From Eubacteriales bacterium (GTDB taxonomy: Bacteria; Bacillota; Clostridia; Oscillospirales; CAG-272): a DNA stretch of 36,083 nucleotides. The DNA is taken from contig JAZSDJ010000047.1 in NCBI GenBank assembly GCA_045531105.1, forward strand, positions 1-36,083, given 5' to 3'. Position 1 is the first letter of the stretch. Each line of letters starts with the position of its first letter. The translations under genes were made by a program, and so were the position numbers. The notes under the pieces are model-generated. The model ran no database searches. It worked only from the letters and a program-made list of their open reading frames with translations, and had not been told where the DNA came from. Of this stretch, positions 213 to 33,592 are shown one piece after another.

Positions 213-1325
213 TTAGTCTTCGATGCCAAGCGCCGACAAATCAAAATCTCCGTCGTCTGGAATGTCAAATTCTCCATCGTCGTCAGAGCCTTCGCCGTTC
301 GCTATTTTTGCTTTGATTTTGTCTTCGAGTTCTTTCATAAGTTCTTCCGAGGATTCAAGATGCGCGCGCATTTTGTCTTTTCCTTGGATTTTGGTATCTC
401 CATAGGTGAAGAATGAACCACTCTTTTCAACAATGCCAAGTTCTATTGCCATATCAACGATTTCTGTTGATTTGGAAATTCCCGAGCCGTAAAGTATTTC
501 AAATTCTGCAACCTTAAATGGTGGAGCGACTTTGTTTTTAACAACCTTCGCTTTTACTCTGTTTCCGTACGCTTCGCTTCCGTTTTTGAGTGTTTCGCTC
601 TTTCTTATGTCAATTCTTACTGATGCGTAGAATTTAAGTGCGTTACCACCTGTGGTTGTTTCTGGGTTTCCATACATAACGCCTATCTTGCTTCTCAACT
701 GGTTGATAAAGATAAGTATGCAGTTTGACTTGTTGATTGCGCCTGCGAGTTTACGAAGTGCCTGTGACATAAGTCTCGCTTGAACGCCCATATGGCTGTC
801 ACCCATTCCACCCTCAATTTCTTGTTGTGGTACAAGCGCTGCAACAGAGTCAATTACGATAATATCAACCGCTCCCGAGTTTATAAGGGTTTCAGCGATT
901 TCGAGCGCTTGCTCTCCGTTGTCAGGTTGAGAAACCAAAAGTTCGTCAATGTTTACGCCTATCGCTTTTGCGTACACAGGGTCAAGTGCGTGTTCTGCAT
1001 CTATGAACGCAGCCGTTCCGCCTTGCTTTTGGCTCTCTGCAACAGAGTGAAGCGCGATTGTTGTTTTACCAGATGATTCCGGACCATAAATTTCGATAAT
1101 TCTGCCCTTTGGAAGTCCACCAACACCGAGAGCAAGGTCAAGTGTGAGCGAACCTGTGGAAATTGCTTCAATTTTTATGTCAGGCGCGTCACCTAAACGA
1201 ATAATTGAGCCTTCTCCGTTGTCTTTTCTAATTTGCGCAAGCGCTGTATCAAGCGCTTTTCTCTTTTGTTCAGCAATGCTGAGTTCAGCGCCCTTCTTTT
1301 CAGTTTTTGTGGATTTTTTTGCCAT
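213..1325 (-). CDS. recA: Recombinase RecA
   Basis: 370-aa ORF with the Walker [20 protein letters not shown], the L2-type [15 protein letters not shown] and an acidic C-terminal tail. AGGAG lies upstream of the ATG. Confidence 0.97.
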
Positions 1326-1380
1326 TTAGTATCTCCTTGTATGTGGGATTGACAATGATTGTTGTTTGATTTAACGAACT

Positions 1381-1750
1381 TGATGAATTGCGACAGAGTC
1401 GCGTTAATTCGTTTTTGATGAATTGCGAACAGAGTTCGCATGAATTGACACTTCGTGTCATGAATTGAGGCTGTCGCCTCATGAATTCTCGCACAATTAA
1501 GCTACACTTACTCGCGCTTGCTTAATATATATTTTAATAATCGCCTCAATTTTTATCTCTCCTTGTGCTCCATTATATGAACTCTATTGCACTCCGTTCA
1601 TAATCTAACCAACATGGAGAAAACGGAGTTTTCGAGAATTTATGGAGTGTTTGAAAAACATGAGAATTCATGGAGCATTCGCAGAATGCGAGAATTAATG
1701 CCGAAGGCAATTCATTAATATGCAATTCATTGAGCGAAGCGATTTATTGC
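1381..1750 (-). repeat. Composite intergenic repeat, copy A. Two inverted arrays of short hairpins spaced by a (C)ATGAATT(G) core flank a conserved core (ctccatgttggttag...tataat)
   Basis: ATGAATT occurs at 1383, 1418, 1440, 1460 and 1481 (about 21-nt phasing), separated by variable palindromes. The complementary AATTCAT array lies at 1636-1740. The core at 1560-1616 matches copies at 5230-5300, 9240-9670, 31280-31326 and 36000-36075. Confidence 0.75.
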
Positions 1751-1893
1751 ATATCGACGAGCGCAAATGCGCTCCCATTTTAAGTTCAAAAAGCAAGAAT
1801 TTCATGACGCATCGCAAATGGCGGACTACGCCGTACGATGACGGTCGCCAGTGAGGAGCAACACAGAAATTCGACGCTTATTTGGACTTAAAA

Positions 1894-2469
1894 TCAGTAT
1901 GTTGGGCTATCAAGTCGCCATTCTCCTAAATCCTTATTGTAAGTAACAACCACCTCAATATCGAATGGCTCTTCACCTTCTTCTATTATGGCAGGGAGTG
2001 TGGCGATAATTTCGTTTCTTTTGATTTTTTCTATTTTGATTTTTGTTGTGTCGTATTTATACACTTTTTTTACGGAGTTTTCGTAGTTTACATTAACTGT
2101 AAGATAACCTGTGTCGCCTACTATGTATCTTGCGTAGATTGGAACTCCCATGTTTTGAGTTCCTGAAAAATACATGTTTATCATATCGTCAGCCATACGC
2201 TTTGAAAAAACCGCTTTTGTTTCTACCAAGAGGTCGTTTCTAACTTTGTATGATGCGTCTTCTCTGACATAGTAATAGTCGCCTGTATAGTGGTTTTCCA
2301 TATCAGCGGGTAATCCGTCACCATAATAAACCTGATTGAGCGAATACGAACGGTCAACAAGGTCTTTTACGATATCAAGCGCCTCATTTTCACCGTCAAC
2401 TCGCGCACAGGAACAAAATGTTCCCGTGGCAAGCAAAAGAGTGAGCGCTAATAGTAATATTTTTTTCAT
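1894..2469 (-). CDS. Putative lipoprotein of unknown function
   Basis: 191-aa ORF. The N-terminal signal peptide MKKILLLALTLLLATGTFCSC has a Cys-containing lipobox-like end. Its ATG spans 2467-2469, so it overlaps the gyrA stop codon (2469-2471) by one base. Confidence 0.7.
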   Translation of the reverse strand: MKKILLLALTLLLATGTFCSCARVDGENEALDIVKDLVDRSYSLNQVYYGDGLPADMENHYTGDYYYVREDASYKVRNDLLVETKAVFSKRMADDMINMYFSGTQNMGVPIYARYIVGDTGYLTVNVNYENSVKKVYKYDTTKIKIEKIKRNEIIATLPAIIEEGEEPFDIEVVVTYNKDLGEWRLDSPTY

Positions 2470-5042
2470 TATTCAGCATCCTCTGGGGTGCTTGGTGCAT
2501 CAGTTACAGGGGCAGATGTGTCAATATTTTCAGCATTTTGTGCGTTTTCGTTATCTACTATCTCTGTTGCCTCTGCGTTTTCTGTTACCTCTTCGTCCTC
2601 ATCGACTGCGTCGGTAAAGGTCATTTTTGCAACCTTTGTTCCATCTGCAATACGCATTACGCGCACGCCTGATGCGCTTCTATTATAAACAGGAACTTCA
2701 CTAACAGGAGTTCTTATAACAACACCTGCGTCGGTAATTGCCATAATATCTTCGCTTTCGTCAACTGCGCCGATTGTCGCAAGTTTTCCTGTCTTATCGG
2801 TTACATTGTGTGCGCGAACACCGAAGATACCACGATTTCTTGGCTCGAAGTCGCTAAATTCGCTTCTCTTACCAAATCCGTTTTCAGTTACTGTCAAAAG
2901 TTTCTTTGTTTCGTCAACGATAACCGCTCCACAAACTACATCATCGCCACGAAGTTCAATACCACGAACACCGCGAGCGGTTCTACCAACGATAGATACT
3001 TTGTCTTCTGTAAAGCGAACGCCTTGTCCGTTCTTTGATGCGATAATAATGTCGCTATCTCCCTTAGTGTGTCCAACAAAGATAAGTTCGTCGCCTTCGT
3101 CAAGGTTGATTGCAATCTTACCGCCCTTGCGTTGATATTCGTATTCCTTAACTCTTGTGCGTTTAATTACGCCCTTGCGAGTTACCATTACGAGATATTC
3201 ATTTTCCTCAAATCCTTCAAGCGCCACCATTGCGGTTACTTTTTCGCCCTTTTCAATCTCGATTATATTGATAAGGTTAGCGCCCTTAGCGGTTCTTGAA
3301 CTTTCAGGAATTCTATATACCTTTCTTACGAAAATCTTACCATTATCGGTAAACATAAGAAGGTGTGAGTGTGAATTTGCAACGAGAATGTTCTCAATAA
3401 AGTCCTCGTCCTTTGTTCCCATTGCCACAAGACCTTTACCTCCACGGTGTTGAGCCTCGTATGTGTCAGCGGGTATTCTCTTAATATAGCCTGAATTTGT
3501 AAGAGTGATTACGCACTCATGGCGCTCAATAAGGTCTTCAAGGTCGATTTCGTCGTCGCTGTCGATAATCTCTGTGCGTCTTTCGTCTGCGTATTTTCTC
3601 TTGATTTCTTCAAGTTCTGTTTTGATGATTTCTTTAATCTTGTTTTCGTCAGCCAAAATCGCTGTGAGTTCTGCAATAGTTGCGTGAAGTTTTGCAAGAC
3701 GCTCCTCAACCTTTTGTCTTTCCATTCCAGACAAACGGCCAAGTGTCATTTCTACAATCGCTTGTGATTGCTCCTCGGAGAGCAAGAACCTTTCTCTGAG
3801 TTTCTCTTTCGCTACCGCTGTGCTTTCACTTCCACGAATGATTGAAATTACCTCGTCGATATTGTCAATCGCTATCTTATAACCCTCGTAAATGTGAGCC
3901 TCCGCTTGCGCTTTTTTGAGGTCAAAACGAGTTCTACGCTGAACGATTTCTTCTTGATATTTGATATATTCCTTCAAGATTTCACGAAGTCCAAGTGTCT
4001 TTGGCTCGCCATTTACCAAAACGAGCATATTCATAGCACAAGTGTCTTGAAGTTGTGTGTTTTTGTAAAGTTGGTTAAGAATTACTTGAAGGTTCGCGTC
4101 GCGACGGCACTCAATTACAATTCTCATTCCCGCACGACCACTCTCGTCGCGAATACCCGTAAGTCCTTCTACCTTTTTGTCTTTGTGAAGTTCCGCTATT
4201 TTTTCAATAAGTTGTGACTTGTTTACCATATATGGTATTTCTGTTACAACTATTCTGTGTTCTTCTTCCTCGCATACTGCCTTTGAACGAACGCTTACTC
4301 TGCCCTTTCCTGTGGTATATGCGTCGATAATTCCGCGTTTTCCGTAAATTGTTGCATAGGTTGGGAAGTCTGGACCTTTTATGTATTCCATCATTTCCTC
4401 AACGCTCGCGTCGGGATTATCAATTAAGTGAATTGTTCCGTCAATTACCTCGCCAAGGTTGTGAGGTGGAATGTTTGTCGCCATACCTACGGCAATACCT
4501 ACGCTTCCGTTTACCAAAACATTTGGGAAACGAGATGGAAGTACAGTTGGCTCTTTACGGCTGTTGTCAAAGTTTGGAACGAAGTCAACAACATCTTTTT
4601 CAATGTCAGCCATAAGTTCGTTTGCAAGTTTTGACATTCTCGCCTCTGTATAACGATATGCAGCGGCGCCGTCACCATCAACGTTACCAAAGTTTCCGTG
4701 TCCGTCAATGAGTGGGTGACGAAGTGAGAATGGTTGAGCCATTCTTACAAGCGTTCCATATACCGCTTGGTCTCCGTGTGGATGGTATCTACCAAGCACG
4801 TTACCGACGGTTGTCGCTGATTTTCTAAATGGTTTGTCCGAGGTCAAGTGGTCCTCGTACATAGCGTACATTACACGTCTTTGTCCAGGTTTCATTCCGT
4901 CCCTGACATCAGGCAACGCACGCGATACAATTACGCTCATTGAGTATTCAAGAAACGCTTCTTTTACTCTTGACTCAATATTGCGATTTACTATCATCTG
5001 CTCAATATTTTCATAATCAAGCACATTGTGTTCTTTTTCCAT
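2469..5042 (-). CDS. gyrA: DNA gyrase subunit A
   Basis: 857-aa ORF with SVIVSRALPDVRDGMKPGQRRV, the catalytic AAAYRYTEARM motif, C-terminal beta-pinwheel repeats and an acidic tail. AAGGAG lies before the ATG. Confidence 0.97.
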   Translation of the reverse strand: MEKEHNVLDYENIEQMIVNRNIESRVKEAFLEYSMSVIVSRALPDVRDGMKPGQRRVMYAMYEDHLTSDKPFRKSATTVGNVLGRYHPHGDQAVYGTLVRMAQPFSLRHPLIDGHGNFGNVDGDGAAAYRYTEARMSKLANELMADIEKDVVDFVPNFDNSRKEPTVLPSRFPNVLVNGSVGIAVGMATNIPPHNLGEVIDGTIHLIDNPDASVEEMMEYIKGPDFPTYATIYGKRGIIDAYTTGKGRVSVRSKAVCEEEEHRIVVTEIPYMVNKSQLIEKIAELHKDKKVEGLTGIRDESGRAGMRIVIECRRDANLQVILNQLYKNTQLQDTCAMNMLVLVNGEPKTLGLREILKEYIKYQEEIVQRRTRFDLKKAQAEAHIYEGYKIAIDNIDEVISIIRGSESTAVAKEKLRERFLLSEEQSQAIVEMTLGRLSGMERQKVEERLAKLHATIAELTAILADENKIKEIIKTELEEIKRKYADERRTEIIDSDDEIDLEDLIERHECVITLTNSGYIKRIPADTYEAQHRGGKGLVAMGTKDEDFIENILVANSHSHLLMFTDNGKIFVRKVYRIPESSRTAKGANLINIIEIEKGEKVTAMVALEGFEENEYLVMVTRKGVIKRTRVKEYEYQRKGGKIAINLDEGDELIFVGHTKGDSDIIIASKNGQGVRFTEDKVSIVGRTARGVRGIELRGDDVVCGAVIVDETKKLLTVTENGFGKRSEFSDFEPRNRGIFGVRAHNVTDKTGKLATIGAVDESEDIMAITDAGVVIRTPVSEVPVYNRSASGVRVMRIADGTKVAKMTFTDAVDEDEEVTENAEATEIVDNENAQNAENIDTSAPVTDAPSTPEDAE

Positions 5043-5110
5043 TGTTTACTCCTTCTGATTTGCGAGTATATTTCTTCGTTTTGTGTCAAACTTTATTTTT
5101 AATTTAAGGT

Positions 5111-5379
5111 GATGAATTGCACACTTTGTGTGCATTAATTCTCGAACGCGTTGCGTTCTGCGACTCGCTTTGCTCGCGTGCATATCTTCCACCAGCCAAT
5201 CGCGCTTCGTCTCAACTCGCGTTCTTGGGGTGTCACCTACATTGTATCAACTCTATTACACTTTTCTCGTTCGTAATCTAACCAACATGGAGCGAGTGGA
5301 ACGAGCGAGAATTCATGAGGCTTTGCCTCAATTCATGAACGCTTGCGTTCAATTCATGGAGCAAAGCGAGAATTAATTG
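5111..5379 (-). repeat. Composite intergenic repeat, copy B (between gyrB and gyrA)
   Basis: AATTCAT/AATTAAT cores sit at 5310, 5330, 5351 and 5371 (20-21-nt phasing). The terminal inverted sequences are gcattaattctcg (5143-5155) and cgagaattaatt (5367-5378). The core at 5230-5300 is near-identical to 35960-36075. Confidence 0.75.
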
Positions 5380-5391
5380 TTCGTTGAAAAT

Positions 5392-7431
<2,040 letters not shown>

Positions 7432-7607
7432 TCAAAAAGAAAAGTTGTAAAATTAATTAGTATGAATCAACGGACGAGTGTCCGAGGCAAGTGGTGAGCC
7501 ACCGCGAGCAACCTTCGTATTAATTCCACACTTACTCGCCACTACATATTTTTATTATATCAATTAAAAACGGACAAAACGGACAACTTTTTAAAAGTGG
7601 CAAATTT

Positions 7608-7850
7608 TTATATTTTTGTTAGCCCTGCAAGAATAGTGCTTACATTGTGTTCAGCCAAATAAATTGTTCCGTCTTTCATTATTACAAATGATTTTGGCAA
7701 GTCATAGCCAAGAGTTACTACTCTGCCGTTTTTTTGTGCTTTATTTAAATACGCGCGCGTATGCGTAGATACTGTCGCCGTGTCAAGGTCAAATATCGCC
7801 TCAACTTCACACGAGCGAACGTTTTTATTACTTCCTAAATATAAATACAT
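7608..7850 (-). CDS. remB: DUF370-family protein (RemB/YaaB-like)
   Basis: 80-aa ORF starting MYLYLG. Size and position between recF and gyrB match Bacillus yaaB/remB. Confidence 0.75.
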   Translation of the reverse strand: MYLYLGSNKNVRSCEVEAIFDLDTATVSTHTRAYLNKAQKNGRVVTLGYDLPKSFVIMKDGTIYLAEHNVSTILAGLTKI

Positions 7851-7878
7851 ATTTTTTTAATGCAAGGTGCAAAGGCAA

Positions 7879-9033
7879 CTATTCCTCGCCTTTCTCCTCC
7901 ACTTTAATTTCTTCCTCACCAAAACAGTTTTTTTCACACCTTTTTCCGTCTTGAAGATAAATAAAGGTTGTTTCCTCTTGTGTGAAATAGTTTGGTTCGC
8001 ACGAGGTTATTATAACTTGTCTATTATTGATGTTTGAAAGGACATATTTGCGTCTTGACACATCAAGTTCTGAAAGAACATCGTCAAGCAAGAATACAGG
8101 GTACTCTCCTGTATGCTCTTTGCTTATCTCGCCCTCTGCCATTTTCATTGCCAAGGCAAGCGAGCGTTGCTGTCCTTGCGATGCATAAAGCCTTGCATCT
8201 TTTCCGTTTAGTTCTATTTTTAAGTCGTCTTTGTGTATTCCATACACTGTCGCTCCATATCTTATCTCTCTTTCAAGATTTTCTGTCAGAAGTACAGCGT
8301 ATCTGTTTTTGAGTGTTTCTCGCGAAGAAAAATCCTCGCCTTGTGCGTTGGTTTCGTATGTGATTTTCGGAACTTCGCGCCCGTCTGTCATTTGAGAGAA
8401 AAATTCCTTTACCCAAAAGTCGAGTTTCTTTACATATTCGTTCCTTGCATCCGCTATGTCTGCACAAATTGATGCAAGTTCGCTCGAATAAAAGTCTATC
8501 GTTTCTCTGTATTGAGCCCTCTCGACCTCGTCCATTTTGAGTATTGCATTTCGCGAACTCATTACACTGTTATATCTCGTCATTAATTTGATATATACAG
8601 GCTTTAATTGGCTTATCGCTACATCTAAAAATCCCCTTCTCACACTCGGTGAGTCGCTTATAATTCCAAGATGCGATGGGCAAAATAGCACGGAACGAAA
8701 TTCGCCAATAATATCTGCCGTCTTTTGTACCTTTGAACCGTTTTTGTAAAACGCCTTCGGGCCAGAACGCGATATTTCAACGCCTATCTTCTCGCTCGCT
8801 CCTCGCTTTTCATATTCCATAAGCGAATACGCAACATTTTTGTCAAAGCGTATGAGTTCTTTGTCTTTGAGCGCACGAAAACTCTTTCCACGCGCAAATA
8901 AGTATATCGCCTCTATTATGTTCGTCTTGCCTTGCGCGTTGCGCCCGCATATTACATTCACCGTCGGCGAAAACTCTATTCTCTCTTTTTCTATATTTCT
9001 AAATTCTGTTAATTCTATGTTTTTTACAATCAT
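7879..9033 (-). CDS. recF: DNA replication/repair protein RecF
   Basis: 384-aa ORF with the Walker A GRNAQGKTN, the SMC-like signature SQGQQRSLALA and the Walker B FLLDDVLSELD. Confidence 0.95.
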   Translation of the reverse strand: MIVKNIELTEFRNIEKERIEFSPTVNVICGRNAQGKTNIIEAIYLFARGKSFRALKDKELIRFDKNVAYSLMEYEKRGASEKIGVEISRSGPKAFYKNGSKVQKTADIIGEFRSVLFCPSHLGIISDSPSVRRGFLDVAISQLKPVYIKLMTRYNSVMSSRNAILKMDEVERAQYRETIDFYSSELASICADIADARNEYVKKLDFWVKEFFSQMTDGREVPKITYETNAQGEDFSSRETLKNRYAVLLTENLEREIRYGATVYGIHKDDLKIELNGKDARLYASQGQQRSLALAMKMAEGEISKEHTGEYPVFLLDDVLSELDVSRRKYVLSNINNRQVIITSCEPNYFTQEETTFIYLQDGKRCEKNCFGEEEIKVEEKGEE

Positions 9034-9057
9034 ATAAATACAAGTTGCGTCTGTGAA

Positions 9058-9748
9058 GCGTTAATTCTTTTTTGATGAATTGCGCACACGCGAACCCCCA
9101 AAACTCATTCTTCGTTTCGGGGAACCCCTGAGCGTTGGCGCATTAATTCTCGAACGCGTTGCGTTCTCCATAAATTCTCAAACACTGCGTGTTTTCCATG
9201 AATTCTCACGCACATTTCAGCAAACTTAATTGTTTAACTCCTTGTGCGTTCCATTGTATGAACGCTATTACACTTAGAATTAATTATTTTTTGCTGTATT
9301 AATAGACGCTATCAATATTTTTCTTATTTTGCTATTTTTAGAAAATAAATCTCTATAAATGTTGTCTGAAATATTTCCTGTTTCCTTTAAAATATCAAGC
9401 CAATACCCAGTTTCGTGATTTTCTTTTAATGTAATTTTTAATTTGTTACAAAAATCTGCCTTGCTACTTGCATAATTTGCTTCGTGAATATTCGCTCCTA
9501 TACTTGTTCCGCTCCTCATTAGTTGAACTGCGATACTTTTTATTTTATTGTTTTCTTGCAAATTTACTGATAAATTTAAAATATCTATTGCAAATTCCTT
9601 AGATAATTTTAATAAAATATTATCCTTCATTTTTTAATCCTTTTCTATCTAATATGGAGCGAGTGGAACGAGCGAGAATTCATGAGGCAACAGCCTTAAT
9701 TCACGAACGCTTGCGTTCAATTTATGGAGCAAAGCGAGAATTAATCAT
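9058..9748 (-). repeat. Composite intergenic repeat, copy C, interrupted by and carrying the four-helix-bundle ORF
   Basis: The left arm at 9058-9279 (gcgttaattc..gatgaattg..., core ...cattgtatgaacgctattacac) and the right arm at 9640-9748 (ctaatatggagcgagtggaacgagcgagaattcatgagg...) are collinear with copy B. ORF 9280-9630 replaces the 16-nt centre. Confidence 0.75.
9280..9630 (-). CDS. Four-helix-bundle protein (23S rRNA intervening-sequence protein / Avd-like family)
   Basis: 116-aa ORF with the family-typical QLMRSGTSIGANIHEA...ADF..KL.I..KE..ET.YWL pattern. Confidence 0.85.
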   Translation of the reverse strand: MKDNILLKLSKEFAIDILNLSVNLQENNKIKSIAVQLMRSGTSIGANIHEANYASSKADFCNKLKITLKENHETGYWLDILKETGNISDNIYRDLFSKNSKIRKILIASINTAKNN

Positions 9749-9774
9749 GAATAACTAATTTTGCTTTACCAAAA

Positions 9775-10920
9775 TTAGTTATTCATTCTAAGTGGCATCA
9801 CAAAATATTTATATGTCGCATCGCTCTTGTCCTGTGGCTCAATAAGTACGCCGTGGAGAGGGTTATTATACGACATTTTGATTTCTCCGTCGTCTATTAC
9901 TTTGAGTGCGTCAAGCATAAATTTACAGTTAAATCCGATTACCATTCCTTCGTCGGTTTCTTTTCTTATTTGAATTGTGTCAAATGCGTTTCCATTTGAA
10001 CTTATTGTTGACACCAAAAGGTTGTCTTCAACTGTGAATTTTACATATGAACGAATACTTCCCGCTAAACGGTCCTCTACTATGAGCGAACTTCTTTCAA
10101 GCGCTCCACGAAGCGCTGAGGCGTCAAGATATGTTACTACCTTGTGTGATGTTGGAAGTATTCTGTTATAGTCGATATACTCGGAGTCAATCGTCTTTGA
10201 GAAGAACATATATGTTCCAAATTTGAAAATGATATATCTTCTTGTAAGTCTTATCTCTAATGCATCTTCTGTGTCTTTTGTCATTTTGAGTATGTCAGAA
10301 AGTGTTCTTCCTGGTACGATGAATTTGAGATTGAGATTTACAAGGTCTTTGCTCCTGTTTTCAAGTTTGATTTCCTTTTCACAGTATGCAAGTCTGTTTC
10401 CGTCACACGCAACTATTAACATATTGTTGTCGGTGATTTTAAAGTACGCTCCGTTAAATACAGGACGAGCGTCGTTTTGTCCTATCGCAAAGTATATTCT
10501 GTTTACAAATTTTCTGAATAAATATTGTGGTATCATAAATCCTCTCTCTCCATATATTTCTGGAAGAGGTGGGAATTGGTCGCCAGGTAATGCCTTTATA
10601 TCAAAGTGCGAAAGTCCTGACTCTATTCTCGCTGAAAATTTGTCGTCAACACTTACTTTTATGTCGCCAGCGGGCATTACTTTCAATATTTGAAGAAGTT
10701 TGTTCGCGTTGATTACTACATCGCCTTCTTCTTCTACTCTCGCTACTATTGAGGTTCTAAAACCTTTTTCCATGTCTTGTGTCTCAATTACTACCTTGCC
10801 GTCTTCTGTGCATACAAGGTGTACGCCTTCGAGATTTGCCATTGTGTTCTTTCCCGCTACTGTGTAAAGCGCTGGGGTCAATCCATTCATTAATGTGTCT
10901 CTGTCAAAAATTACTACCAT
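9775..10920 (-). CDS. dnaN: DNA polymerase III beta sliding clamp
   Basis: 381-aa ORF of the expected length, positioned directly after dnaA, ending in the clamp-like C-terminus ...KYFVMPLRMN. Confidence 0.93.
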   Translation of the reverse strand: MVVIFDRDTLMNGLTPALYTVAGKNTMANLEGVHLVCTEDGKVVIETQDMEKGFRTSIVARVEEEGDVVINANKLLQILKVMPAGDIKVSVDDKFSARIESGLSHFDIKALPGDQFPPLPEIYGERGFMIPQYLFRKFVNRIYFAIGQNDARPVFNGAYFKITDNNMLIVACDGNRLAYCEKEIKLENRSKDLVNLNLKFIVPGRTLSDILKMTKDTEDALEIRLTRRYIIFKFGTYMFFSKTIDSEYIDYNRILPTSHKVVTYLDASALRGALERSSLIVEDRLAGSIRSYVKFTVEDNLLVSTISSNGNAFDTIQIRKETDEGMVIGFNCKFMLDALKVIDDGEIKMSYNNPLHGVLIEPQDKSDATYKYFVMPLRMNN

Positions 10921-11172
10921 ATTTACTCCTGTCTCTTACTTTTTCTTTGCTGAAAAGAAAAAGTAAGCAAAAAGAAAAGTTATAAATTAATTTCTATTAT
11001 TTTAAAATTACCGCTAAACTAACACTAGTCTGCCACCCGAGGCTCTCGGGCCCGTGGGGGCTTCCCCACCTGAAAATAAAAAGATACCAAAAAGAAAAGT
11101 TATAAATTAATTTTCTATTATTTTAAAATTACTGCTAAACAAACACCAGTTTGCCTGTCGGGGATTCCCCGA
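10921..11172 (-). repeat. Leader/spacer repeat module, two consecutive copies (10921-11050 and 11078-11172), directly upstream of dnaN
   Basis: 10921-11050 is near-identical to 13133-13268, which lies upstream of dnaA. It contains a perfect 14-bp hairpin (10935-10967) 4 nt from the dnaN SD. Confidence 0.8.
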
Positions 11173-11752: not shown

Positions 11753-13132
11753 CTATTGATTTAGTGAGCGAATAAGTTCTTTTATATCAAGAGCGAAATC
11801 GTTATCTTCTGCCATTCGGTCTTTAACAAACTTTTCGCTTGAAACAAGAGTTGAACGGTCTCTGTTTAAAATCTTCGCAATTTGTGATTGTGAAAGCGAT
11901 GTTATCTCTCTTGCAATATAAACACAAATATGACGCGCTAAAACAATTTCTTTGTTTCTCTTGCTTGATAAAATATCTTCTTTGCTGATTCCATACTTTG
12001 TTGATACGGAAATGAGTATTTCTTCAAATTTCTTTGAGTCGTTTTCTTTCGCCTGTGCAAATTCCTTTGTAACATCTTTTACTTTTTCAAGTGTTATCTC
12101 TGAGCCTTGCAAAAATTTCATCGCACCAAGTTTTTTTACAATTCCTTCAAGTTGACGAATTGATGAGGTAACATTCTCTGCAATGTATTTCAAAATTTCG
12201 CTCGATAAGTAAATATTATGTTGTTTTGCTTTTTGAGAAAGAATTGCAAGTCTTAAATCGTAGTCTGGTAATGAAACATCTGCCAAAATTCCTGACATAA
12301 ATCTTGTTCTAAGTCTTTCTTCAAGTGTTCTAATTTCGTATGGTGGACGGTCAGAGGTTAAAATGATTTGCTTTCTTTCTTCATAAACTGCATTAAATGT
12401 GTTGAAAACTTCAAGTTGTGTCGCTTCTCTTCCCGCAACAAATTGAATATCGTCTATCAAAAGAACATCAACTGCACGAAGTTTTTCTCTAAATTCCGCT
12501 GTCGTTTTATATCTTATTGCCTCAACAAGTTGATTTGTAAATTCTTCGCCTTTTATGTACATTATTTTCTTGTTTGGAAAACGATGCGCGAGTCTGTTCG
12601 TTATCGCATAAAGTAAGTGCGTTTTTCCAACTCCACTTGGACCATAAATGAATAACGGATTATAAAGGTTCGCTCTGAGCGTTTCAGGGTCGTTTAAATC
12701 TTTGTCCGCTACTGCACGCGCTGCCGCATATGCAAACTCGTTTGATGAACCAGATATGAAGTTGTCAAATGTGTAATCAGAACGATAATTGTCAAGAATT
12801 ACTATGTCGTCTGATTTTTTAGCCTCGCCACGCTCGATTTTTGAAATTTTTTCAACTGTCGGTGCTGAAAGGTCCATTTCTTCGTTTTCCGTTGAAATTA
12901 TCACTATTCTTGGCTTGAAACCAACTACCTTCTCAGTCGCTTCTGCCATCTCGTCAGCAAATATGTCAAGTATTACATTTCTTTTGGCGTTGTTCGTCGT
13001 TGTGAACATCGCTTCTTTCGATGTGAGGGAAATTAATTCCATATCTCCAAACCATAAATTATATGCAGTGTCTGGATGTTTCGTTTTTAAAATCTCTGAT
13101 ATGGGTTCCCATATACTTCTTAATTCCGCCAT
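11753..13132 (-). CDS. dnaA: Chromosomal replication initiator DnaA
   Basis: 459-aa ORF with the Walker A GPSGVGKTHL, the Walker B LLIDDIQF, the sensor region, and the C-terminal domain IV (RHICVYIAREIT..S...IAK.L.RDRSTLV). Confidence 0.97.
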   Translation of the reverse strand: MAELRSIWEPISEILKTKHPDTAYNLWFGDMELISLTSKEAMFTTTNNAKRNVILDIFADEMAEATEKVVGFKPRIVIISTENEEMDLSAPTVEKISKIERGEAKKSDDIVILDNYRSDYTFDNFISGSSNEFAYAAARAVADKDLNDPETLRANLYNPLFIYGPSGVGKTHLLYAITNRLAHRFPNKKIMYIKGEEFTNQLVEAIRYKTTAEFREKLRAVDVLLIDDIQFVAGREATQLEVFNTFNAVYEERKQIILTSDRPPYEIRTLEERLRTRFMSGILADVSLPDYDLRLAILSQKAKQHNIYLSSEILKYIAENVTSSIRQLEGIVKKLGAMKFLQGSEITLEKVKDVTKEFAQAKENDSKKFEEILISVSTKYGISKEDILSSKRNKEIVLARHICVYIAREITSLSQSQIAKILNRDRSTLVSSEKFVKDRMAEDNDFALDIKELIRSLNQ

Positions 13133-13268
13133 TTTTTACTCCTGTCTCTTACTTTTTCTTTGCTGAAAAGAAAAAGTAAGCAAAAAGAAAAGTTATAAAT
13201 TAATTTTCTATTATTTTAAAATTACTGCTAAACTAACACCAGTTTGCCACCCGAGGCGCTCGGGCGCG
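13133..13268 (-). repeat. Leader/spacer repeat module upstream of dnaA
   Basis: Near-identical to 10921-11050. The perfect 14-bp hairpin at 13148-13180 lies next to the SD (aggag). Confidence 0.8.
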
Positions 13269-13387: not shown

Positions 13388-13620
13388 GACGGACTCGGTG
13401 CGGACTCGGTGCGGACCGAGAGCCAATCTCCGCATTTGTCTCATATAGTTGCTTAATTAACCTCGAAGCAATATAATTAAACGGACAATCTCGGTGCGGA
13501 CTCGGTGCGGACCGAGAGCTAAACTCCGCATTTGTTTCTCGTTAATTGTTCAACCAATCACGAAAAACTCGGTGTGAAACCAGAGGCAAGTTGTGCGTTT
13601 ATTTTGTATTGATTTTTTAA
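13388..13620 (-). repeat. Repeat family 3 (ggctctcggtccgcaccgag... / ttaattatattgcttcgaggttaattaagcaa units), inverted orientation
   Basis: The reverse complement of 13388-13620 is collinear with 32243-32530 and 33443-33530. Confidence 0.75.
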
Positions 13621-15277: not shown

Positions 15278-15345
15278 CTTACTTTTCTGTACTTTTTCTT
15301 TGCTGAAAAGAAAAAGTAAGCAAAAAGAAAAGTAATAAAATAACT
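15278..15345 (-). repeat. Partial leader module with the same hairpin, upstream of the FGGY kinase gene
   Basis: The string tactttttctttgctgaaaagaaaaagtaagcaaaaagaaaagt matches the dnaA and dnaN leaders. Confidence 0.7.
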
Positions 15346-15447
15346 ATATACTAAAATTTTGGTTAAAAGCCACTTATATTTTATCATATAAATAAAGGTA
15401 TTTCAAGAATAATAATATAAAGAAAAAATAAAAATTTAAAAAATATC

Positions 15448-15826: not shown

Positions 15827-15914
15827 GCAGGGGTATCGAAGCGGTCATAACGAGGCGGTCTTGAAAACCGTTTGGCCAAAAGCCACGTGGGTTCGAATCC
15901 CACCCCCTGCGCCA
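15827..15914 (+). tRNA. tRNA-Ser (anticodon UGA), CCA encoded
   Basis: The acceptor GCAGGGG pairs with CCCCTGC. The anticodon arm is GCGGT-CTTGAAA-ACCGT. There is a long variable arm, the T arm is GTGGG-TTCGAAT-CCCAC, and the discriminator is G followed by CCA. Confidence 0.92.
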
Positions 15915-27433: not shown

Positions 27434-27518
27434 AATGCGAAAAATACGCACAAAGCCCTAAAAATGGTGAGAAAAATCGCCAAAAAGAGAGGAAACGAGC
27501 AAAAACAACTAAAAAGAA

Positions 27519-27534
27519 TGTTTCACGTGAAACA
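27519..27534. promoter_or_regulatory. parS site (TGTTTCACGTGAAACA, perfect palindrome)
   Basis: Exact match to the Firmicute parS consensus TGTTNCACGTGAAACA. Confidence 0.9.
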
Positions 27535-27591
27535 TATGCCCCCCTTCTCGTCGTTGCGTTTTCGCCCAGAGAAGAAACGAGGTCGCAAAAA

Positions 27592-27607
27592 TGTTCCACG
27601 TGAAACA
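27592..27607. promoter_or_regulatory. parS site (TGTTCCACGTGAAACA)
   Basis: Matches the parS consensus, differing only at the degenerate position. Confidence 0.88.
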
Positions 27608-27632
27608 AAAGTTACCACATAATTCACTCAAA

Positions 27633-27648
27633 TGTTTCACGTGAAACA
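27633..27648. promoter_or_regulatory. parS site (TGTTTCACGTGAAACA)
   Basis: Exact palindromic parS. Confidence 0.9.
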
Positions 27649-27672
27649 AAAATACGACTGGTTTTGGGCGAA

Positions 27673-27688
27673 TGTTTCACGTGAAACA
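27673..27688. promoter_or_regulatory. parS site (TGTTTCACGTGAAACA)
   Basis: Exact palindromic parS. Confidence 0.9.
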
Positions 27689-27713
27689 GCGCAATTTTGC
27701 GAAAAATAAACAA

Positions 27714-28956: not shown

Positions 28957-29073
28957 AATATATGAACAGATTTTAAAATGATAGTGGCAAGCGAGTGCGT
29001 ATATGTATAAATCGCTTCGCTTAATGAATGCAGGGGCTTGGTCATTATTCATTTTTACTCGACAGGGGGATTT

Positions 29074-29856
29074 ATGTCACAGGTTATATCTTTTGTTAAT
29101 CAAAAGGGTGGAGTTGGTAAGACAACTTCCGCTATCAATGCTGCGACTATGCTCTCGGTGCTTAAAAACAAGGTTCTTTTAATAGATTTAGATCCTCAGG
29201 GGAGTTCAACAAGTGGCGTTGGAATACAGAAAAATCAGACGCAGAACAACGCTTATGATGTTATTATTGGTGGTTGCGATATTCGTTCTGCGATTTTGAA
29301 AACTCGTTTTCCGAACTTGCATTTGCTTCCTGCAAATGTTGACTTGGCTGCCGCTGATTACGAACTTACCTCGCAAGACGGGCGCGAATTTTTCTTAAAG
29401 CGCCAACTTGAAAAATTGACGGGCGAATTTTATTATGATTACATAATTATCGACTGCCCGCCATCAATAGGGCTTTTAACGATTAACGCATTGAGTGCAA
29501 GTAACAGTTTAATAATACCACTTCAATGCGAATATTACGCGCTTGAAGGCTTGTCACAACTTATGATGACGGTCAAAAAGGTCAAGCAGTTATACAATCC
29601 AAAACTTTACATTCTTGGCATACTTGTTACAATGTATAGCCCGAGATTGAAACTCTGCACACAGGTGTTTGAGGAACTTAAAAAATACTACGAGGACAAA
29701 CTCTTTGACACGAAGATTTCACGCACGGTAAAACTTTGCGAGTGTCCGAGTTATGGAGAGCCTATATATTATTATGCAAGGTATTCAAAGCCGAGCCTTG
29801 AATATCTTGATTTAGCGAAAGAAATTATAAATCGAACAGGGGGATTTTTGATATGA
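29074..29856 (+). CDS. soj: ParA/Soj chromosome-partitioning ATPase
   Basis: Deviant Walker A NQKGGVGKTT, then LLIDLDPQGS and IIIDCPPS. The start MSQVISF at 29074 is preceded by GGGGGA, so the 12 upstream codons in the ORF track are probably not translated. Confidence 0.93.
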   Translation: MSQVISFVNQKGGVGKTTSAINAATMLSVLKNKVLLIDLDPQGSSTSGVGIQKNQTQNNAYDVIIGGCDIRSAILKTRFPNLHLLPANVDLAAADYELTSQDGREFFLKRQLEKLTGEFYYDYIIIDCPPSIGLLTINALSASNSLIIPLQCEYYALEGLSQLMMTVKKVKQLYNPKLYILGILVTMYSPRLKLCTQVFEELKKYYEDKLFDTKISRTVKLCECPSYGEPIYYYARYSKPSLEYLDLAKEIINRTGGFLI

Positions 29857-30737
29857 AAAAAACAGGACTTGGAAAAGGACTTGAATCAATTTTTGCAGAC
29901 AATTATACAGAGAAGGTCGCAAAAAACGAGGGCGTAAACAAAATTAAACTCTCTCAAATTGAAACAAAAAGCGACCAACCGAGAAAATATTTTGACACAG
30001 ATGCGCTTGAAACCTTGGCAGACTCTATTGCTCAACACGGACTTTTGCAACCTATTCTCGTTCGCAAGGTGGAGAGTGGCTTTTATCAGATAATCGCAGG
30101 CGAACGCAGATACAGGGCTTCAAAAATGGCAGGACTTACAGAAATCCCTGTTGTTATAATTGAGGCAGATGAACTCAAAACGGCAGAACTCGCTATCGTT
30201 GAAAATGTTCAAAGAGAGGACCTCAATCCTTATGAAGAAGCGCAAGCGTATGCGTCACTTATGGACGATTTTGATTTGACACAAGAGCAGGTTAGCGAAA
30301 AGGTTGGCAAATCCCGTAGTGCGATTGCAAACACACTTCGCCTTCTTGAATTGCCCGAGGAAGTTCTTGAAATGCTTAAAACGGGAGATATCAGTGCAGG
30401 TCACGCAAGAGCGCTCCTTGCCCTCAAAAACAAGGAAGAAATCGTTGATACAGCGCAAAAAATTCTCATTCGTTCACTTAGCGTAAGAGATACAGAGGCG
30501 CTTGTAAAGAAACTCAACAGAGTTGTTGAAATTATTGACGGAATTGAAGAAACCGAGATTGTTGTTGACTATGTAAAGGACCTCGAAAACAGAGCGAGAA
30601 CTCTTATTGGTAGACAAGTAAAAATCAAAGCGAAGGGCAAGTCGAAGTCTGTTCAAATTGAGTTTACAGACAACGAGGACCTTGAAGAAATTTTGGTTAA
30701 ACTTTGTGGCAAGAAAATCATTGAGGGAGTTCTATGA
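29853..30737 (+). CDS. spo0J: ParB/Spo0J chromosome-partitioning protein
   Basis: GLGKGLESIF, SDQPRK, LLQPILVR, GERRYRAS and an HTH (LTQEQVSEKVGKSRSAIANTLRLL). Its ATG overlaps the soj stop as ATGA. Confidence 0.93.
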   Translation: MKKTGLGKGLESIFADNYTEKVAKNEGVNKIKLSQIETKSDQPRKYFDTDALETLADSIAQHGLLQPILVRKVESGFYQIIAGERRYRASKMAGLTEIPVVIIEADELKTAELAIVENVQREDLNPYEEAQAYASLMDDFDLTQEQVSEKVGKSRSAIANTLRLLELPEEVLEMLKTGDISAGHARALLALKNKEEIVDTAQKILIRSLSVRDTEALVKKLNRVVEIIDGIEETEIVVDYVKDLENRARTLIGRQVKIKAKGKSKSVQIEFTDNEDLEEILVKLCGKKIIEGVL

Positions 30738-31201
30738 TTAGCCTTTTTTCGCAAAGTATAAGCCATAATATAACCACAGGGGTGCTTGTAATTGGATTTA
30801 CCATTGGCGCAATTCTTGCGTTTAGTGTGTACTTTTTCCAAACTCGTATACTCGGTTCACTCATTCGCGCATTACTTAAAGATGCGATAGGCGAGCAAAA
30901 TGCGAAAACTCTTGAACAAATTGAGAAAAATAACTTCTTTTTCAAGTTCTATTTAAGAGATGGCAGTATTCTTCGCAAATATATAAAGGTTGTTGGAGAT
31001 ACCGTTCCAAAAAACAACGAGGGGAAATACGATTTTTCATGCGCTCGATTTTATATCGACGAAGAAAAGGCACAAGTGGCTGAAATTCGCTATTCAAAGG
31101 AAACAAAAATTTGGATTTTCGTCCTTGGCGTTGTCGCTATTGCAGTAGTTGGCGCTGTGATGTATTTCGCATTGCCATATTTGCTTGATGCGATTAGATG
31201 A
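30734..31201 (+). CDS. Small membrane protein translationally coupled to spo0J (position typical of the DUF4446-type gene; family not verified)
   Basis: 155-aa ORF with N-terminal and C-terminal hydrophobic helices (GVLVIGFTIGAILAFSVYFF and IWIFVLGVVAIAVVGAVMYFAL). ATGA overlap with the parB stop. Confidence 0.6.
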   Translation: MISLFSQSISHNITTGVLVIGFTIGAILAFSVYFFQTRILGSLIRALLKDAIGEQNAKTLEQIEKNNFFFKFYLRDGSILRKYIKVVGDTVPKNNEGKYDFSCARFYIDEEKAQVAEIRYSKETKIWIFVLGVVAIAVVGAVMYFALPYLLDAIR

Positions 31202-31326
31202 TGAATTCTCGCTTCGCTCCATGAATTGAACGCAACGCGTTCATGAATTGAGGCAGAGCCTCACGAATTCTCGAAAACTCCGTTTTCTCCATGTTGGTTA
31301 GATTACGAACAAGGTAGATACAATTA
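31199..31326 (+). repeat. Composite intergenic repeat, copy D (short form), oriented toward mgsA
   Basis: gatgaattctcgcttcgctccatgaattgaacgcaacgcgttcatgaattgaggcagagcctcacgaattctcg...ctccatgttggttagattacgaac..tacaat is the reverse complement of copies A, B, C and E. Confidence 0.75.
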
Positions 31327-31348: not shown

Positions 31349-31711
31349 ATGAAAATAGCATTAATTGCACATGACAAAAAGAAAAATGATATGATAAATC
31401 TTGCAATAGAGTACAAAGATGTGCTTTCAAAGCATGAACTCTATGCAACAGGAACAACGGGTACGCTTGTTATGGGCGAAACAGGTCTTAGCGTACATAG
31501 AATGAAAAGTGGCCCTCTTGGTGGAGACCAACAAATCGGTTCAATGGTAGCCGAGGGCGCGCTCGACCTCATAATCTTTCTTCGTGACCCGTTAACCTCT
31601 CAACCTCACGAGCCAGATGTTTCTGCGCTCCTTCGCCTTTGCGATGTTCAATCAATCCCCCTTGCAACAAATGTCGCAAGCGCAAAAATCATTCTTTCTA
31701 CTCTTAAATAA
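31349..31711 (+). CDS. mgsA: Methylglyoxal synthase
   Basis: 120-aa ORF with [27 protein letters not shown] and DPL..QPHEPDV..LLRL..V..IP.ATN. Confidence 0.93.
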
Positions 31712-31712
31712 C

Positions 31713-31740
31713 AAAAAGCACCTCGTTTGAGGTGCTTTTT
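31713..31740. terminator. Bidirectional terminator hairpin (aaaaagcacctc-gttt-gaggtgcttttt)
   Basis: It lies between the convergent mgsA and RHH genes. The same hairpin recurs at 32213-32242 and 33413-33441. Confidence 0.8.
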
Positions 31741-31753
31741 GAATGTGTGTTAT

Positions 31754-32051: not shown

Positions 32052-32231
32052 ATGAAGAAAGCAGAGGGGATAGGAATAATAAAAGAACTTGATAATTTGG
32101 GTAGGCTTGTAATACCAAAAGAAATGCGAGAAATGTTCAAGTTCGAAAAAGAGGTTGAAGTGGTTGTGACCCCAGAGGGAGTTTTAGTTCGCAATCCTGA
32201 ATACATACTTGTAAAAAAGCACCTCGGTTGA
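32052..32231 (+). CDS. AbrB/SpoVT-family DNA-binding protein
   Basis: The motif GIIKELDNLGRLVIPKEMREMF...V resembles the AbrB swapped-hairpin N-terminal domain. The start at 32052 has AGGAAA upstream. The ORF track's 32028 start is an alternative. Confidence 0.75.
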   Translation: MKKAEGIGIIKELDNLGRLVIPKEMREMFKFEKEVEVVVTPEGVLVRNPEYILVKKHLG

Positions 32232-32334
32232 GGTGCTTTTTTATGCGAAGTGCGGAGAGCGAAAAGATAAATCAATACAAAATAAACGCGGAGATTGCCT
32301 CGGGCGCTCGTCCGTCGGTTCGAACCGAGTCTGC

Positions 32335-32526
32335 ACCGAGATTGCTCGTTTAATTATATTGCTTCGTGGTTAATTAAGCAACTATGCGAAACAAAGGCGG
32401 AGTTTGGCTCTCGGTCCGCACCGAGCGCGTACCGAGATTGTCCGTTTAATTATATTGCTTCGAGGTTAATTAAGCAATTATGCGAAACAAAGGCGGAGTT
32501 TGGCTCTCGGTCCGCACCGAGTGGTT
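32335..32526 (+). repeat. Two tandem 96-nt units of repeat family 3
   Basis: accgagattg[c/t][t/c]cgtttaattatattgcttcg[t/a]ggttaattaagcaa..tatgcgaaacaaaggcggagtttggctctcggtccgcaccgag starts at 32335 and again at 32431. Confidence 0.85.
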
Positions 32527-32661: not shown

Positions 32662-33411
32662 ATGAAAAGATTACTAGCATTAATTTTGGCACTGTTGCTT
32701 TGTCTTGGCTTGGTGTCTTGTGGCGTTTATGACAAGGATTTGACAAGTTCACAGGAGCAATCTACAAGTACAGAAAGCCCAAGTAGCGAGCGCGACTCAA
32801 ACAGCGAAACTCCTTTAACAGAGTCGTCAGGCGAGGAGTCAAGCTCCAAGGAAGAAATGTTGACAGGCAAAAGAGAATTAACATTGCTTCGAAATCCTCA
32901 ACAATTGCCTCCTGCTAGTGGTATAACTCCCGAATCGTTCAATGCGTATGTGTCATATAATGATGAATATCACCATAGTGTTGAAAGAGAAGGTGATTGG
33001 GATTTCGTAACGCAAGTAGTTTTGTCGTTTGAGGAATATAAATCATATATGTATCTTCCTCATCTAGAAGAATGTCCAATAACAGAAGAGACCTTTGAGG
33101 ATAACTTTGTTATTTTGATTAGTGGATTTTCTGGACATGTTCGTAGCGAACATGTTTATTATAGTGGCTTTGAAAGGCTTGACGAAACCCGCTACTATTT
33201 AAGATACAACCTAGTGTCTTGGGGGCAGGGATTTTCAGAAGCAGAAGATCCTTTCAGAGATATTTGTGTAATACCAAGGTCGCTATGCTCTGATGATTTG
33301 TCAACTATTCAAGTGAAAATTATACAAGAAAGCTATAAATTTGAAACAGGAGAGTTATACAATTCCGATTGCGAAAGATTTACCCAGTTTCCATATTATT
33401 TACCACAATAA
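32662..33411 (+). CDS. Lipoprotein of unknown function
   Basis: 249-aa ORF. The signal peptide has the lipobox LGLVSC, followed by a Ser/Glu-rich linker. Confidence 0.75.
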   Translation: MKRLLALILALLLCLGLVSCGVYDKDLTSSQEQSTSTESPSSERDSNSETPLTESSGEESSSKEEMLTGKRELTLLRNPQQLPPASGITPESFNAYVSYNDEYHHSVEREGDWDFVTQVVLSFEEYKSYMYLPHLEECPITEETFEDNFVILISGFSGHVRSEHVYYSGFERLDETRYYLRYNLVSWGQGFSEAEDPFRDICVIPRSLCSDDLSTIQVKIIQESYKFETGELYNSDCERFTQFPYYLPQ

Positions 33412-33412
33412 T

Positions 33413-33441
33413 AAAAAGCACCTCGGTTGAGGTGCTTTTTT
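33413..33441 (+). terminator. Terminator hairpin, third copy of the aaaaagcacctcggttgaggtgctttttt module
   Basis: Identical to 32213-32242. It is followed by the same family-3 flank (..gcggagagcgaaaagataaatcaatacaaaataa). Confidence 0.8.
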
Positions 33442-33592
33442 AATGCAAAATGCGGAGAGCGAAAAGATAAATCAATACAAAATAACCGCGTAATTTGGCT
33501 CTCGGTCCGCACCGAGTCCGTACCGAGCGCGAAAGGTTGCCTGTCGGGGCTTCCTTCTTTCTTCACTCTTTAATGTGGAGTTTGGCTCACCG

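Follow-up and report, generated by a model that had tools for sequence, protein, structure and literature searches.

What is the composite repeat that fills most of the spacer between gyrB and gyrA in this DNA, and how does it come to stand, on one plan, ahead of several different genes? The window (the whole stretch of 36,083 nt that was analyzed) was recognized by profile search of its open reading frames (ORFs) as the replication-origin region of a low-GC Firmicute. It carries dnaA (11753-13132), dnaN (9775-10920), recF (7879-9033), gyrB (5392-7377), gyrA (2469-5042), and recA (213-1325), all on the minus strand. It also carries genes of the soj/spo0J type, ymdB (minus strand), and an mgsA-like gene (plus strand). 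Rfam detected no rRNA in the window. An earlier note, made from the sequence, had described five copies (A to E) of one intergenic element and offered three possible roles: a promoter or leader cassette, a structure resembling an intervening sequence (IVS) processed by RNase III, or a phased protein-binding array. Among these the IVS-like role fits best, because the full-length copy holds a PF05635 IVS-protein gene in its loop. With a probability of roughly 0.55, we read the copy between gyrB and gyrA (copy B) as belonging, in a partly rearranged form without an ORF, to a mobile, IVS-like cassette family that would be transcribed by operon read-through and fold into a branched stem.

Syntenic loci L049 to L060 were used for comparison. 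Relatives of the window's GyrB, at 98, 97, and 90% identity, were found in animal-gut metagenome assemblies and in metagenome-assembled genomes labeled "Clostridia bacterium"; the host of the family is an uncultured Clostridia lineage of the animal gut. No exact matches to the window's own RecF or IVS protein (IVSP) are on record.

All five proposed copies are present, each between protein-coding genes, and BLAST of each copy against the whole window returned no sixth. The motif CATGAATT occurs 12 times in the window against 2.95 expected, a count reached by none of 100 shuffles, and 11 of the 12 occurrences lie inside the copies. The composite of array, center, and inverted array that the earlier note had outlined is real. 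Two inverted arms, made of constant linkers and short perfect hairpins, surround a conserved center; the linkers are CATGAATTG or a longer form, CTCCATGAATTCTCG. In gene sense, a 5' arm of linker-plus-palindrome units is followed by the center (CTCCATG-TTGGTTAGAT...GTGTAATAGAGTTCATACAATGG) and then by a 3' arm in which the linkers of the 5' arm return as their reverse complement, ending in the terminal sequence GCAATTCATCA. The period of 20-22 nt given in the note holds for units with CATGAATTG; a second unit type, CTCCATGAATTCTCG plus hairpin, has a period of 28 nt and had not been separated from the first. Terminal inverted repeats of the MITE type (TGATGAATT... and ...AATTCATCA) are present, with five such short multi-copy elements in 36 kb.

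Copy B (5111-5379, minus strand) makes up most of the 349-bp gyrB-gyrA spacer. Its 3' arm in gene sense (5111-5158) was read directly and alongside the undisrupted arm in the orthologous spacer of L051. It consists of the terminal linker CAATTCATC (5111-5119), a CACAC/GTGTG hairpin (5120-5132), the linker CGAGAATTAATG (5133-5144), and a GAACGC/GCGTTC hairpin (5144-5158). The arm is then interrupted by a nested, unrelated repeat, GTGACACCCCAAGAAC...GAGTCGCAG, at about 5159-5237, which copy B has in common with copy E and which stands where the L051 orthologue (L051:11950-12275) has two linker-hairpin units. A 112-nt direct repeat links positions 5153-5264 in copy B with 35935-36046 in copy E at 94% identity, and a segment related to the nested repeat was found upstream of recA in L056. 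The center (5238-5292), CTCCATG-TTGGTTAGAT-(14 nt)-GTGTAATAGAGTTGATACAAT, is a remnant of the IVS-protein gene region from which the ORF has been deleted. The 5' arm (5293-5378), with periods of 20, 21, and 20 nt, reads ATTAATTCTCG..CTCCATGAATTG-hairpin(GAACGC)-CATGAATTG-hairpin(GAGGC)-CATGAATTCTCG-(non-hairpin unit)-CTCCATG. Two details of the earlier description need amending here. Units had been taken to be palindromes throughout, and ctcgctttgctc and ctcgctcgttccactcg in copy B are not hairpins; the complementary pair cattaattctcg (5133-5144) and cgagaattaat (5366-5376) does exist, but these are not the extreme ends of the element, since the unit at 5111-5132 lies outside them.

The other copies vary in completeness. 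Copy A (1381-1750, minus strand), between a 191-amino-acid ORF and recA, has no ORF of its own and is divided into a 3' arm (1381-1492), a center with a remnant mini-ORF and TATAAT (1493-1612), and a 5' arm (1613-1750). Copy C (9058-9748, minus strand), between dnaN and recF, is full length: a 5' arm (9660-9748), the 5' half of the center (9647-9659), its 3' half (9253-9273), and a 3' arm (9058-9232) into which a foreign 53-nt repeat is nested (9087-9139). Copy D (31199-31326) is truncated and lies on the plus strand, as had been noted, together with the mgsA-like gene that follows; it comprises a 5' arm (31199-31286) and a center up to TACAAT (31287-31324), has no 3' arm, and ends 24 nt before the mgsA-like start codon. 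Copy E (35818-36083, minus strand), upstream of ymdB, is cut by the end of the window and contains direct repeats; it retains a terminal 3'-arm unit (35818-35852), the nested repeat of the type seen in copy B, and a center (36023-36071).

The hairpins had been described as conserving pairing while their sequences differ, and this proved correct, since no shuffle matched the observed pairing or covariation. Across 83 distinct CATGAATTG-type units collected from the window and related loci, 43 different stems were present, and stem positions 1-4, which adjoin the linkers, formed Watson-Crick pairs in 78-88% of units compared with 27-35% for shuffled partners. In the 37 units of equal length, 95.0% of cells were paired (68.8% in shuffles), changes on both sides were found in 61 cells (18.7 in shuffles), and the covariation score was 0.671 (0.175 in shuffles). 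None of 500 shuffles reached the observed pairing values, and the signal was lost when partners were slid. Because the stems are almost all perfect Watson-Crick, essentially without wobble pairs, a test of G-U against A-C on single hairpins cannot separate RNA from DNA. Linker variants match across arms: CATAAATT in the 5' arm of copy C faces AATTTATG in its 3' arm. We also considered the hairpins as excision footprints (P-nucleotide-like palindromes) and rejected this, as the stems are unrelated to the linker ends.

Copy C contains a gene of 116 amino acids (9280-9630, minus strand), in sense with dnaN and recF, which sits exactly between the two halves of the center with an arm on either side. 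This gene had been overlooked in the earlier note. Its product matched Pfam PF05635, "23S rRNA intervening sequence protein" (E = 3.7e-22), NCBIfam TIGR02436, "four helix bundle protein" (E = 3.5e-25), and PDB 2RLD (E = 5e-25). The dN/dS ratio among relatives of the gene was 0.06-0.18, which is purifying selection and indicates that the gene encodes a working protein. PF05635 relatives are numerous (at least about 8,000 per sequence search), and PADLOC gave no defense-system match for three IVSP variants. The centers without an ORF read TTAGAT-T-ATGAACGGAGTGCAATAG-AGTTCATA(C/T)AAT, in which ATGAACGGAGTGCAATAG (MNGVQ*) is a start codon joined directly to codons that match the final ones of the L051 gene, the closest full-length relative, whose ORF ends in ...GCAGAAGTGCAATAG (AEVQ*). 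Since the start and the last codons are kept, A, B, D, and E descend from a gene-bearing element, by deletion or by truncation.

The window copies themselves had no match in Rfam: Gut-1 (RF01706) did not appear at the gathering threshold (50 bits) anywhere in the window, and its covariance model gave no match at E<=5 over positions 1300-9800. The related loci connect the two. In L049, whose GyrB is 98% identical to that of the window, the ATGAAATC element between gyrB and gyrA contains two Gut-1 matches, one per strand, of 53.9 and 53.8 bits, both above the gathering score. L061 has Gut-1 matches of 72.9 and 69.4 bits just upstream of an IVSP gene, and CATGAATTG arrays in L055 and L028 scored 31-37 bits with the Gut-1 model. 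Gut-1 was reported as a likely non-coding RNA on the strength of covariation, from the human gut only, with no sequenced organism and no function (Weinberg et al. 2010, PMC2864571); we found no later mention of it in the literature searched. Its Rfam consensus is three variable hairpins separated by GUGAAAU. The window element resembles it in having at least three short hairpins with varying, covarying stems and a constant linker of 7-9 nt, and in coming from a gut-metagenome habitat. It differs in its linker, CAUGAAUU(G) or CUCCAUGAAUUCUCG rather than GUGAAAU, in a lineage-specific center, and in scoring below any reportable Gut-1 value. Gut-1 was described as a stand-alone RNA, whereas here the motif forms half of an inverted pair that lies between genes of Clostridia, is mobile, and is associated with a PF05635 gene. 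By this comparison of sequences, the window arms are a sister variant of the Gut-1 motif with a CAUGAAUU linker, and each of the Gut-1 "RNAs" proves to be one half of an inverted pair of arms.

Arrays and IVSP genes occur together. An array was found within about 300 bp of the gene in 12 of 13 distinct IVSP loci inspected, L064 being the exception. In the window, L051, and L068 the arms enclose the gene; in L018, L055, L075, L061, L085, L086, and L095 both arms closely precede it; and L065 has a 5' arm only. Proteins from the six loci with CATGAATT linkers are 53-87% identical to one another, and those from the five loci with (A/G)TGAAAT linkers form a second clade, 44-58% identical to the first and with a 3-residue deletion in common, so that protein clade and linker type match in all 11 loci. 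Both linker types coexist in L051; a protein and its array thus move together and may recognize each other. The encoded protein probably recognizes its own type of linker and hairpin. In the Gut-1-type loci, a promoter-like TTGCGT-17-TATAAT lies between the array and the IVSP gene.

Contents of the same spacers differ among close relatives. The dnaN-recF spacer holds the same gene-bearing element in the window, L017, and L051; in L055 it holds a short CATGAATTG element with two arms and, after it, a related gene; and in L056, whose GyrB protein is identical to that of L055, as in L049 and L050 (98% GyrB identity), it holds an unrelated repeat and no gene. The gyrB-gyrA spacer of L051 carries the orthologue of copy B, in which two hairpin units have been exchanged and the nested repeat is missing, that of L055 a short element, and that of L049 the ATGAAATC-linker element, which has the same start position, 14 nt after the gyrB stop. 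Upstream of recA, copy A is absent in L049, L051 retains only a GCAATTCATCAA stub, and L050 has a 232-bp tandem duplication of an array that belongs to a further, related linker family (CGATATG). These three spacers are thus polymorphic for insertions among strains with GyrB 90-98% identical. All arrays found in L049 to L060 are intergenic, and a 22-kb stretch of L051 has them in about eight spacers. Between copy A and two copies in L049 (recA-recX and recX-miaB) identity reaches 95.7 and 93.3%, compared with 84-89% for the flanking genes and differences of 45-48% at synonymous sites of gyrB and recA. This likeness points to recent spread or homogenization across lineages, or alternatively to very strong constraint.

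Identical IVSPs also occur in different gene neighborhoods: L085 and L086 have in common a DNA block that begins shortly before the array and extends some 30 nt past the stop codon. Target-site duplications were not seen at the junctions examined or in comparisons of empty with filled sites. The comparison upstream of recA gave a hint of a G(C/T)TC repeat, at one site only. The parent element encodes no recognizable transposase, and its only ORF is the PF05635 gene. Searches beyond the related loci yielded little. The center pattern AAYATGGAG-N14-GAGAATTYRTG gave 4 genome and 12 metagenome matches, all by chance and lacking arrays; scans of viral contigs with CATGAATTG patterns returned a few true members (L028-L032, L038, and L046) and also unrelated tandem repeats (L026, L027, and L033), and protein-based viral scans 1-3 loci; and neither copy B, compared with plasmids by BLASTN, nor copy A, compared with phages, had a match.

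The earlier note had observed that every copy points the same way relative to the next gene. With the related loci added, this extends to ten distinct intergenic sites occupied by asymmetric (center-bearing) copies: A to E in the window, recA-recX and recX-miaB in L049, and dnaA-dnaN, recF-remA, and miaB-pgsA in L051, plus orthologues. All ten lie between co-directional genes and in sense (two-sided binomial probability about 0.002), an arrangement in which orientation to the downstream gene and orientation to the whole operon are inseparable. The sign of the GC skew changes near 13-16 kb, and by this measure four of the five window copies run in the direction of replication; of the ten sites, copy E alone separates the two directions, lying on a lagging-strand operon where it follows transcription rather than replication, and it is a single data point. 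The uniform orientation had been put forward as an argument against a mobile repeat. That argument fails, and the family is clearly one that moves or recombines, in view of the presence, absence, and replacement of elements at the same spacers in close strains, the near identity of copies in two species whose synonymous sites have diverged so far, and the tandem duplication in L050.

In silico folding bore out the proposal that a transcript could close into a stem. In minimum-free-energy folds of copy B, copy A, the L051 orthologue of copy B, the L049 Gut-1 pair, and L075, the linkers of the two arms pair and the palindromes form branches, with Z-scores of -2.7, -3.8, -4.8, -7.8, and -3.7, respectively. 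Of 17 elements, 12 have their better fold on the sense strand, a modest difference among elements that are not all independent, and the 17 elements contain 101 G-U pairs in sense versus 70 in antisense. Copy B itself shows the reverse, with a slightly better fold for its antisense strand. As a signal at the RNA level, the predicted advantage of the sense strand is suggestive, not decisive. Cleavage by RNase III would not be assured, because the helices between the arms are at most 13 bp long and are broken by branches.

The reading that we favor combines these observations as follows. The parent form, represented by copy C, has two inverted arms of tandem linker-plus-hairpin units flanking a PF05635 gene, and A, B, D, and E arose from such a form through internal loss of the gene or through truncation. 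Lying in sense in the spacers of co-directional operons, the cassettes would be transcribed by read-through. In the transcript, 5'-arm linkers would base-pair with their complements in the 3' arm and each palindrome would fold on itself, so that the element closed on a long, branched stem; in full-length copies the gene would then be exposed in the loop. On such a model the linkers would be constant because mutual complementarity is needed across arms and copies, and the palindromes free to vary because each need match only itself. Processing or shielding by the stem would leave the flanking cistrons functional, so that the element is tolerated and can spread; the protein may act on its own arrays, making the cassette selfish. 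With regard to the loop, we note that in Gut-1-type loci the gene is not in it, and that in several lineages both arms are upstream of the gene. The perfect palindromes, for their part, would fit a function at the level of DNA as well as one at the level of RNA.

Two alternatives place the function in DNA. One, which we consider unlikely, is that the element is moved as single-stranded DNA by an HUH/Y1-type enzyme encoded elsewhere, in the manner of REP/BIME-RAYT or IS200/IS605-like systems: the enzyme would read a conserved motif plus hairpin, orientation would reflect the replication strand, and the IVSP gene would be passenger cargo. Palindromes essentially free of wobble, a conserved motif directly 5' of each hairpin, arrays in inverted pairs, the lack of a visible target-site duplication, and the co-orientation of most window copies with replication would all agree with such movement. 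Copy E, however, runs with transcription and against replication. Stems of REP elements are conserved within a genome, and the 43 stems found here are diverse; the scanned window ORFs and about 150 kb of related loci, a fraction of the genome, contain no Y1 or other transposase; and a match of clade and linker in every one of 11 loci is unexpected for random cargo. It is distinctly unlikely, in our view, that the arrays are instead phased binding sites on double-stranded DNA, with linkers two helical turns apart serving a four-helix-bundle protein or a nucleoid protein as operator or insulator for an adjacent promoter. The 20-22-bp period, the very constant linkers of 8-9 nt, the covariation of protein clade with linker type, and the position of the arrays in Gut-1-type loci, directly ahead of a promoter-like sequence and the IVSP gene, are what such sites would show; yet duplex binding leaves unexplained both the self-complementarity of the changing spacers and the constant inversion of arms with mutually complementary linkers, and most arrays are orphans far from any IVSP gene.

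The remaining alternatives make the element a functional part of its surroundings or a gene in its own right. That it is a promoter or leader cassette under selection for the expression or regulation of the downstream gene (recA, gyrA, recF, mgsA, or ymdB), as the earlier note had entertained, is very improbable and is not supported by the scans. The conserved TACAAT/TATAAT hexamer in the center, the end of copy D at this hexamer so close to the mgsA-like start codon, and the uniform sense orientation favor it. But the hexamer stands alone: copies A, B, and D contain no sigma-70 promoter (-35 and -10 hexamers at 16-18 nt spacing), the sole promoter-like site on the gene strand lies outside copy A, adjoining recA, and the terminator scan found one terminator-like hairpin, in copy B on the strand opposite the genes. 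Moreover, relatives with 97-98% GyrB identity lack the element upstream of recA or have a different family between gyrB and gyrA, and in full-length copies the hexamer comes after the IVSP gene and before a further structured arm. We find it scarcely credible that each arm is a free-standing sRNA gene and the copies paralogous sRNA loci, even though Rfam classes Gut-1 as "Gene; sRNA" and its covariation led to its rating as a likely RNA (PMC2864571). Because the arms always form inverted pairs, every locus would have to encode the "sRNA" on both of its strands; the arms are flanked by neither a promoter nor a terminator, and the copies lie inside operon spacers, carrying or adjoining a protein gene.

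Among known systems, the nearest in plan are the ORF-bearing IVSs in the 23S rRNA of Leptospira, Coxiella, Xanthomonas, and Brucella, in which an inverted-repeat stem surrounds a PF05635 (S23p) ORF, itself in sense to the host transcript, and the whole is excised by RNase III (PMC4990558). They are regarded as selfish and possibly mobile, their ORFs undergo decay or deletion, and an idea of Ralph and McClelland quoted in the same source is that IVS ORFs serve the mobility of the element (PMC4990558). Copy C likewise has a PF05635 gene between inverted arms and in sense to its host genes. The window copies differ in lying between protein-coding genes rather than in a 23S rRNA helix, in having arms that are modular hairpin arrays rather than simple inverted repeats, and in the purifying selection on the gene of copy C.

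A second comparison is with modular intergenic repeats and MITEs, which are derived from longer coding elements by internal deletion. BOX, Correia, ERIC, and MIRU are short, non-coding, multi-copy, foldable, and confined to transcribed spacers; pneumococcal BOX varies in its number of modular units, and the orientation of mycobacterial MIRU is tied to operon direction. The window element is also short, non-coding, multi-copy, foldable, and derived by internal deletion. To our knowledge, it has no sequence similarity to BOX, the Correia element of Neisseria, ERIC, or MIRU, and it differs from them in a parent that encodes a four-helix-bundle protein instead of a transposase, in the lack of a detected target-site duplication, and in units that combine constant linkers with variable palindromes.

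The protein family also includes Avd (PF05635), an accessory protein of diversity-generating retroelements that works with a nucleic-acid enzyme on structured RNA (PMC10053308). The gene of copy C belongs to the same family, and by this relationship its product appears to be a homologue of Avd. No reverse transcriptase, template, or variable repeat was seen near any of the loci. We know of no role for PF05635 "IVS proteins" outside diversity-generating retroelements.

The element is both a Gut-1-type hairpin array with a new linker and a relative, outside rRNA, of ORF-bearing IVSs, and what is added here is the link from one to the other. A wider claim, which we think unlikely to be right, is that the IVS protein and its cognate arrays form an autonomous selfish element: the protein would bind the branched RNA or single-stranded DNA of its own arrays and promote their spread or homogenization, and Gut-1, orphan arrays, and ORF-bearing 23S IVSs would be products of one mobility system. 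Many spacers near the origin are filled with these repeats, which probably disrupt metagenome assembly, as many homologues lie on contigs of 0.5-2 kb. Gut-1, in Rfam since 2010 with function and organisms unknown, is placed in identifiable Clostridia genomes, where arrays of its type form inverted pairs, behave as fast-moving repeats, and are tied to IVS-protein genes through clade-specific linkers. Two orphans, Gut-1 and the PF05635 IVS proteins, gain a common and testable context, and the idea of Ralph and McClelland that IVS ORFs serve mobility is revived.

Directly upstream of gyrB, dnaN, dnaA, and other window genes lies a 64-nt repeat (7403-7466, 10937-11000, 11057-11120, 13150-13213, and 15290-15353) with the core palindrome TACTTTTTCTTT...AAAGAAAAAGTA. 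The same palindrome also precedes recF, gyrA, and recA in L055 and L056, two syntenic loci of related gut Clostridia. Possible identities for this 64-nt repeat are an operator, a terminator, or one more repeat family. A parS-like palindrome, AAATGTTTCACGTGAAACAAAA, occurs four times within 27516-27691 (repeat family D16), at spacings of 40-73 bp. This cluster precedes the soj/spo0J-like genes (29038-30737).

A 96-nt unit (32315-32506, 13394-13615, and 33469-33527; direct repeat D6 and inverted repeats I1, I2, and I6-I8) occurs in tandem copies that are 90% identical, and its inverted copies, 89-92% complementary over 122-135 nt, are found 19 kb distant near dnaA. The tandem unit and its inverted copies are another intergenic repeat family. 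A terminator-like hairpin, AAAAAGCACCTCGGTTGAGGTGCTTTTT, is present in three copies (31707-31745, 32208-32246, and 33407-33445; direct repeats D10 and D14), at least two of which (32208-32246 and 33407-33445) are followed by a conserved 65-nt repeat. A tRNA gene scoring 55.9 bits lies at 15827-15911, with a 54-nt direct repeat (15588-15641/15749-15802) flanking it.

A 33-53-nt repeat, CCCAAAACTCATTCTTCGTTTCGGGGAACCCCT, has two copies downstream of recA (1-88) and a third, at 9087-9139, nested in the 3' arm of copy C, the full-length array between dnaN and recF; similar GGGG..CCCC units occur in spacers of the syntenic loci L049 and L051. In copy A, the array upstream of recA, an AT-rich stretch of 75 nt (1493-1567) separates the centre from the 3' arm and is nearly identical across two species (counterpart, L049:12453-12530). 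It contains AAGGAG followed by a TTG-initiated mini-ORF of 13 codons (MRRLLKYILSKRE*).

Gut-1-type arrays accompanied by a gene for the 23S rRNA intervening-sequence protein were located at L085:1150-2000, L086:1000-1290, L095:880-2070, and L051:2160-2931, in each case immediately 3' of the terminator that follows a tRNA or tmRNA gene. Near these modules are partial copies of the tRNA/tmRNA 3' end, a feature also seen where integrases have their target sites, but the modules of these four loci contain no integrase.

Hairpin arrays with other linkers were found at L049:10841-11139, L050:10841-11371 (a further syntenic locus), and L032:4700-4960 (a locus from viral-contig scans). These families, with linkers CGATATG/CATATCG and ACTTCAC, follow the same plan as the window copies. 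In L050, one such array carries a 232-bp tandem duplication that L049 does not have, even though the GyrB proteins of the two are identical. The design of a linker plus a variable hairpin looks like a superfamily.
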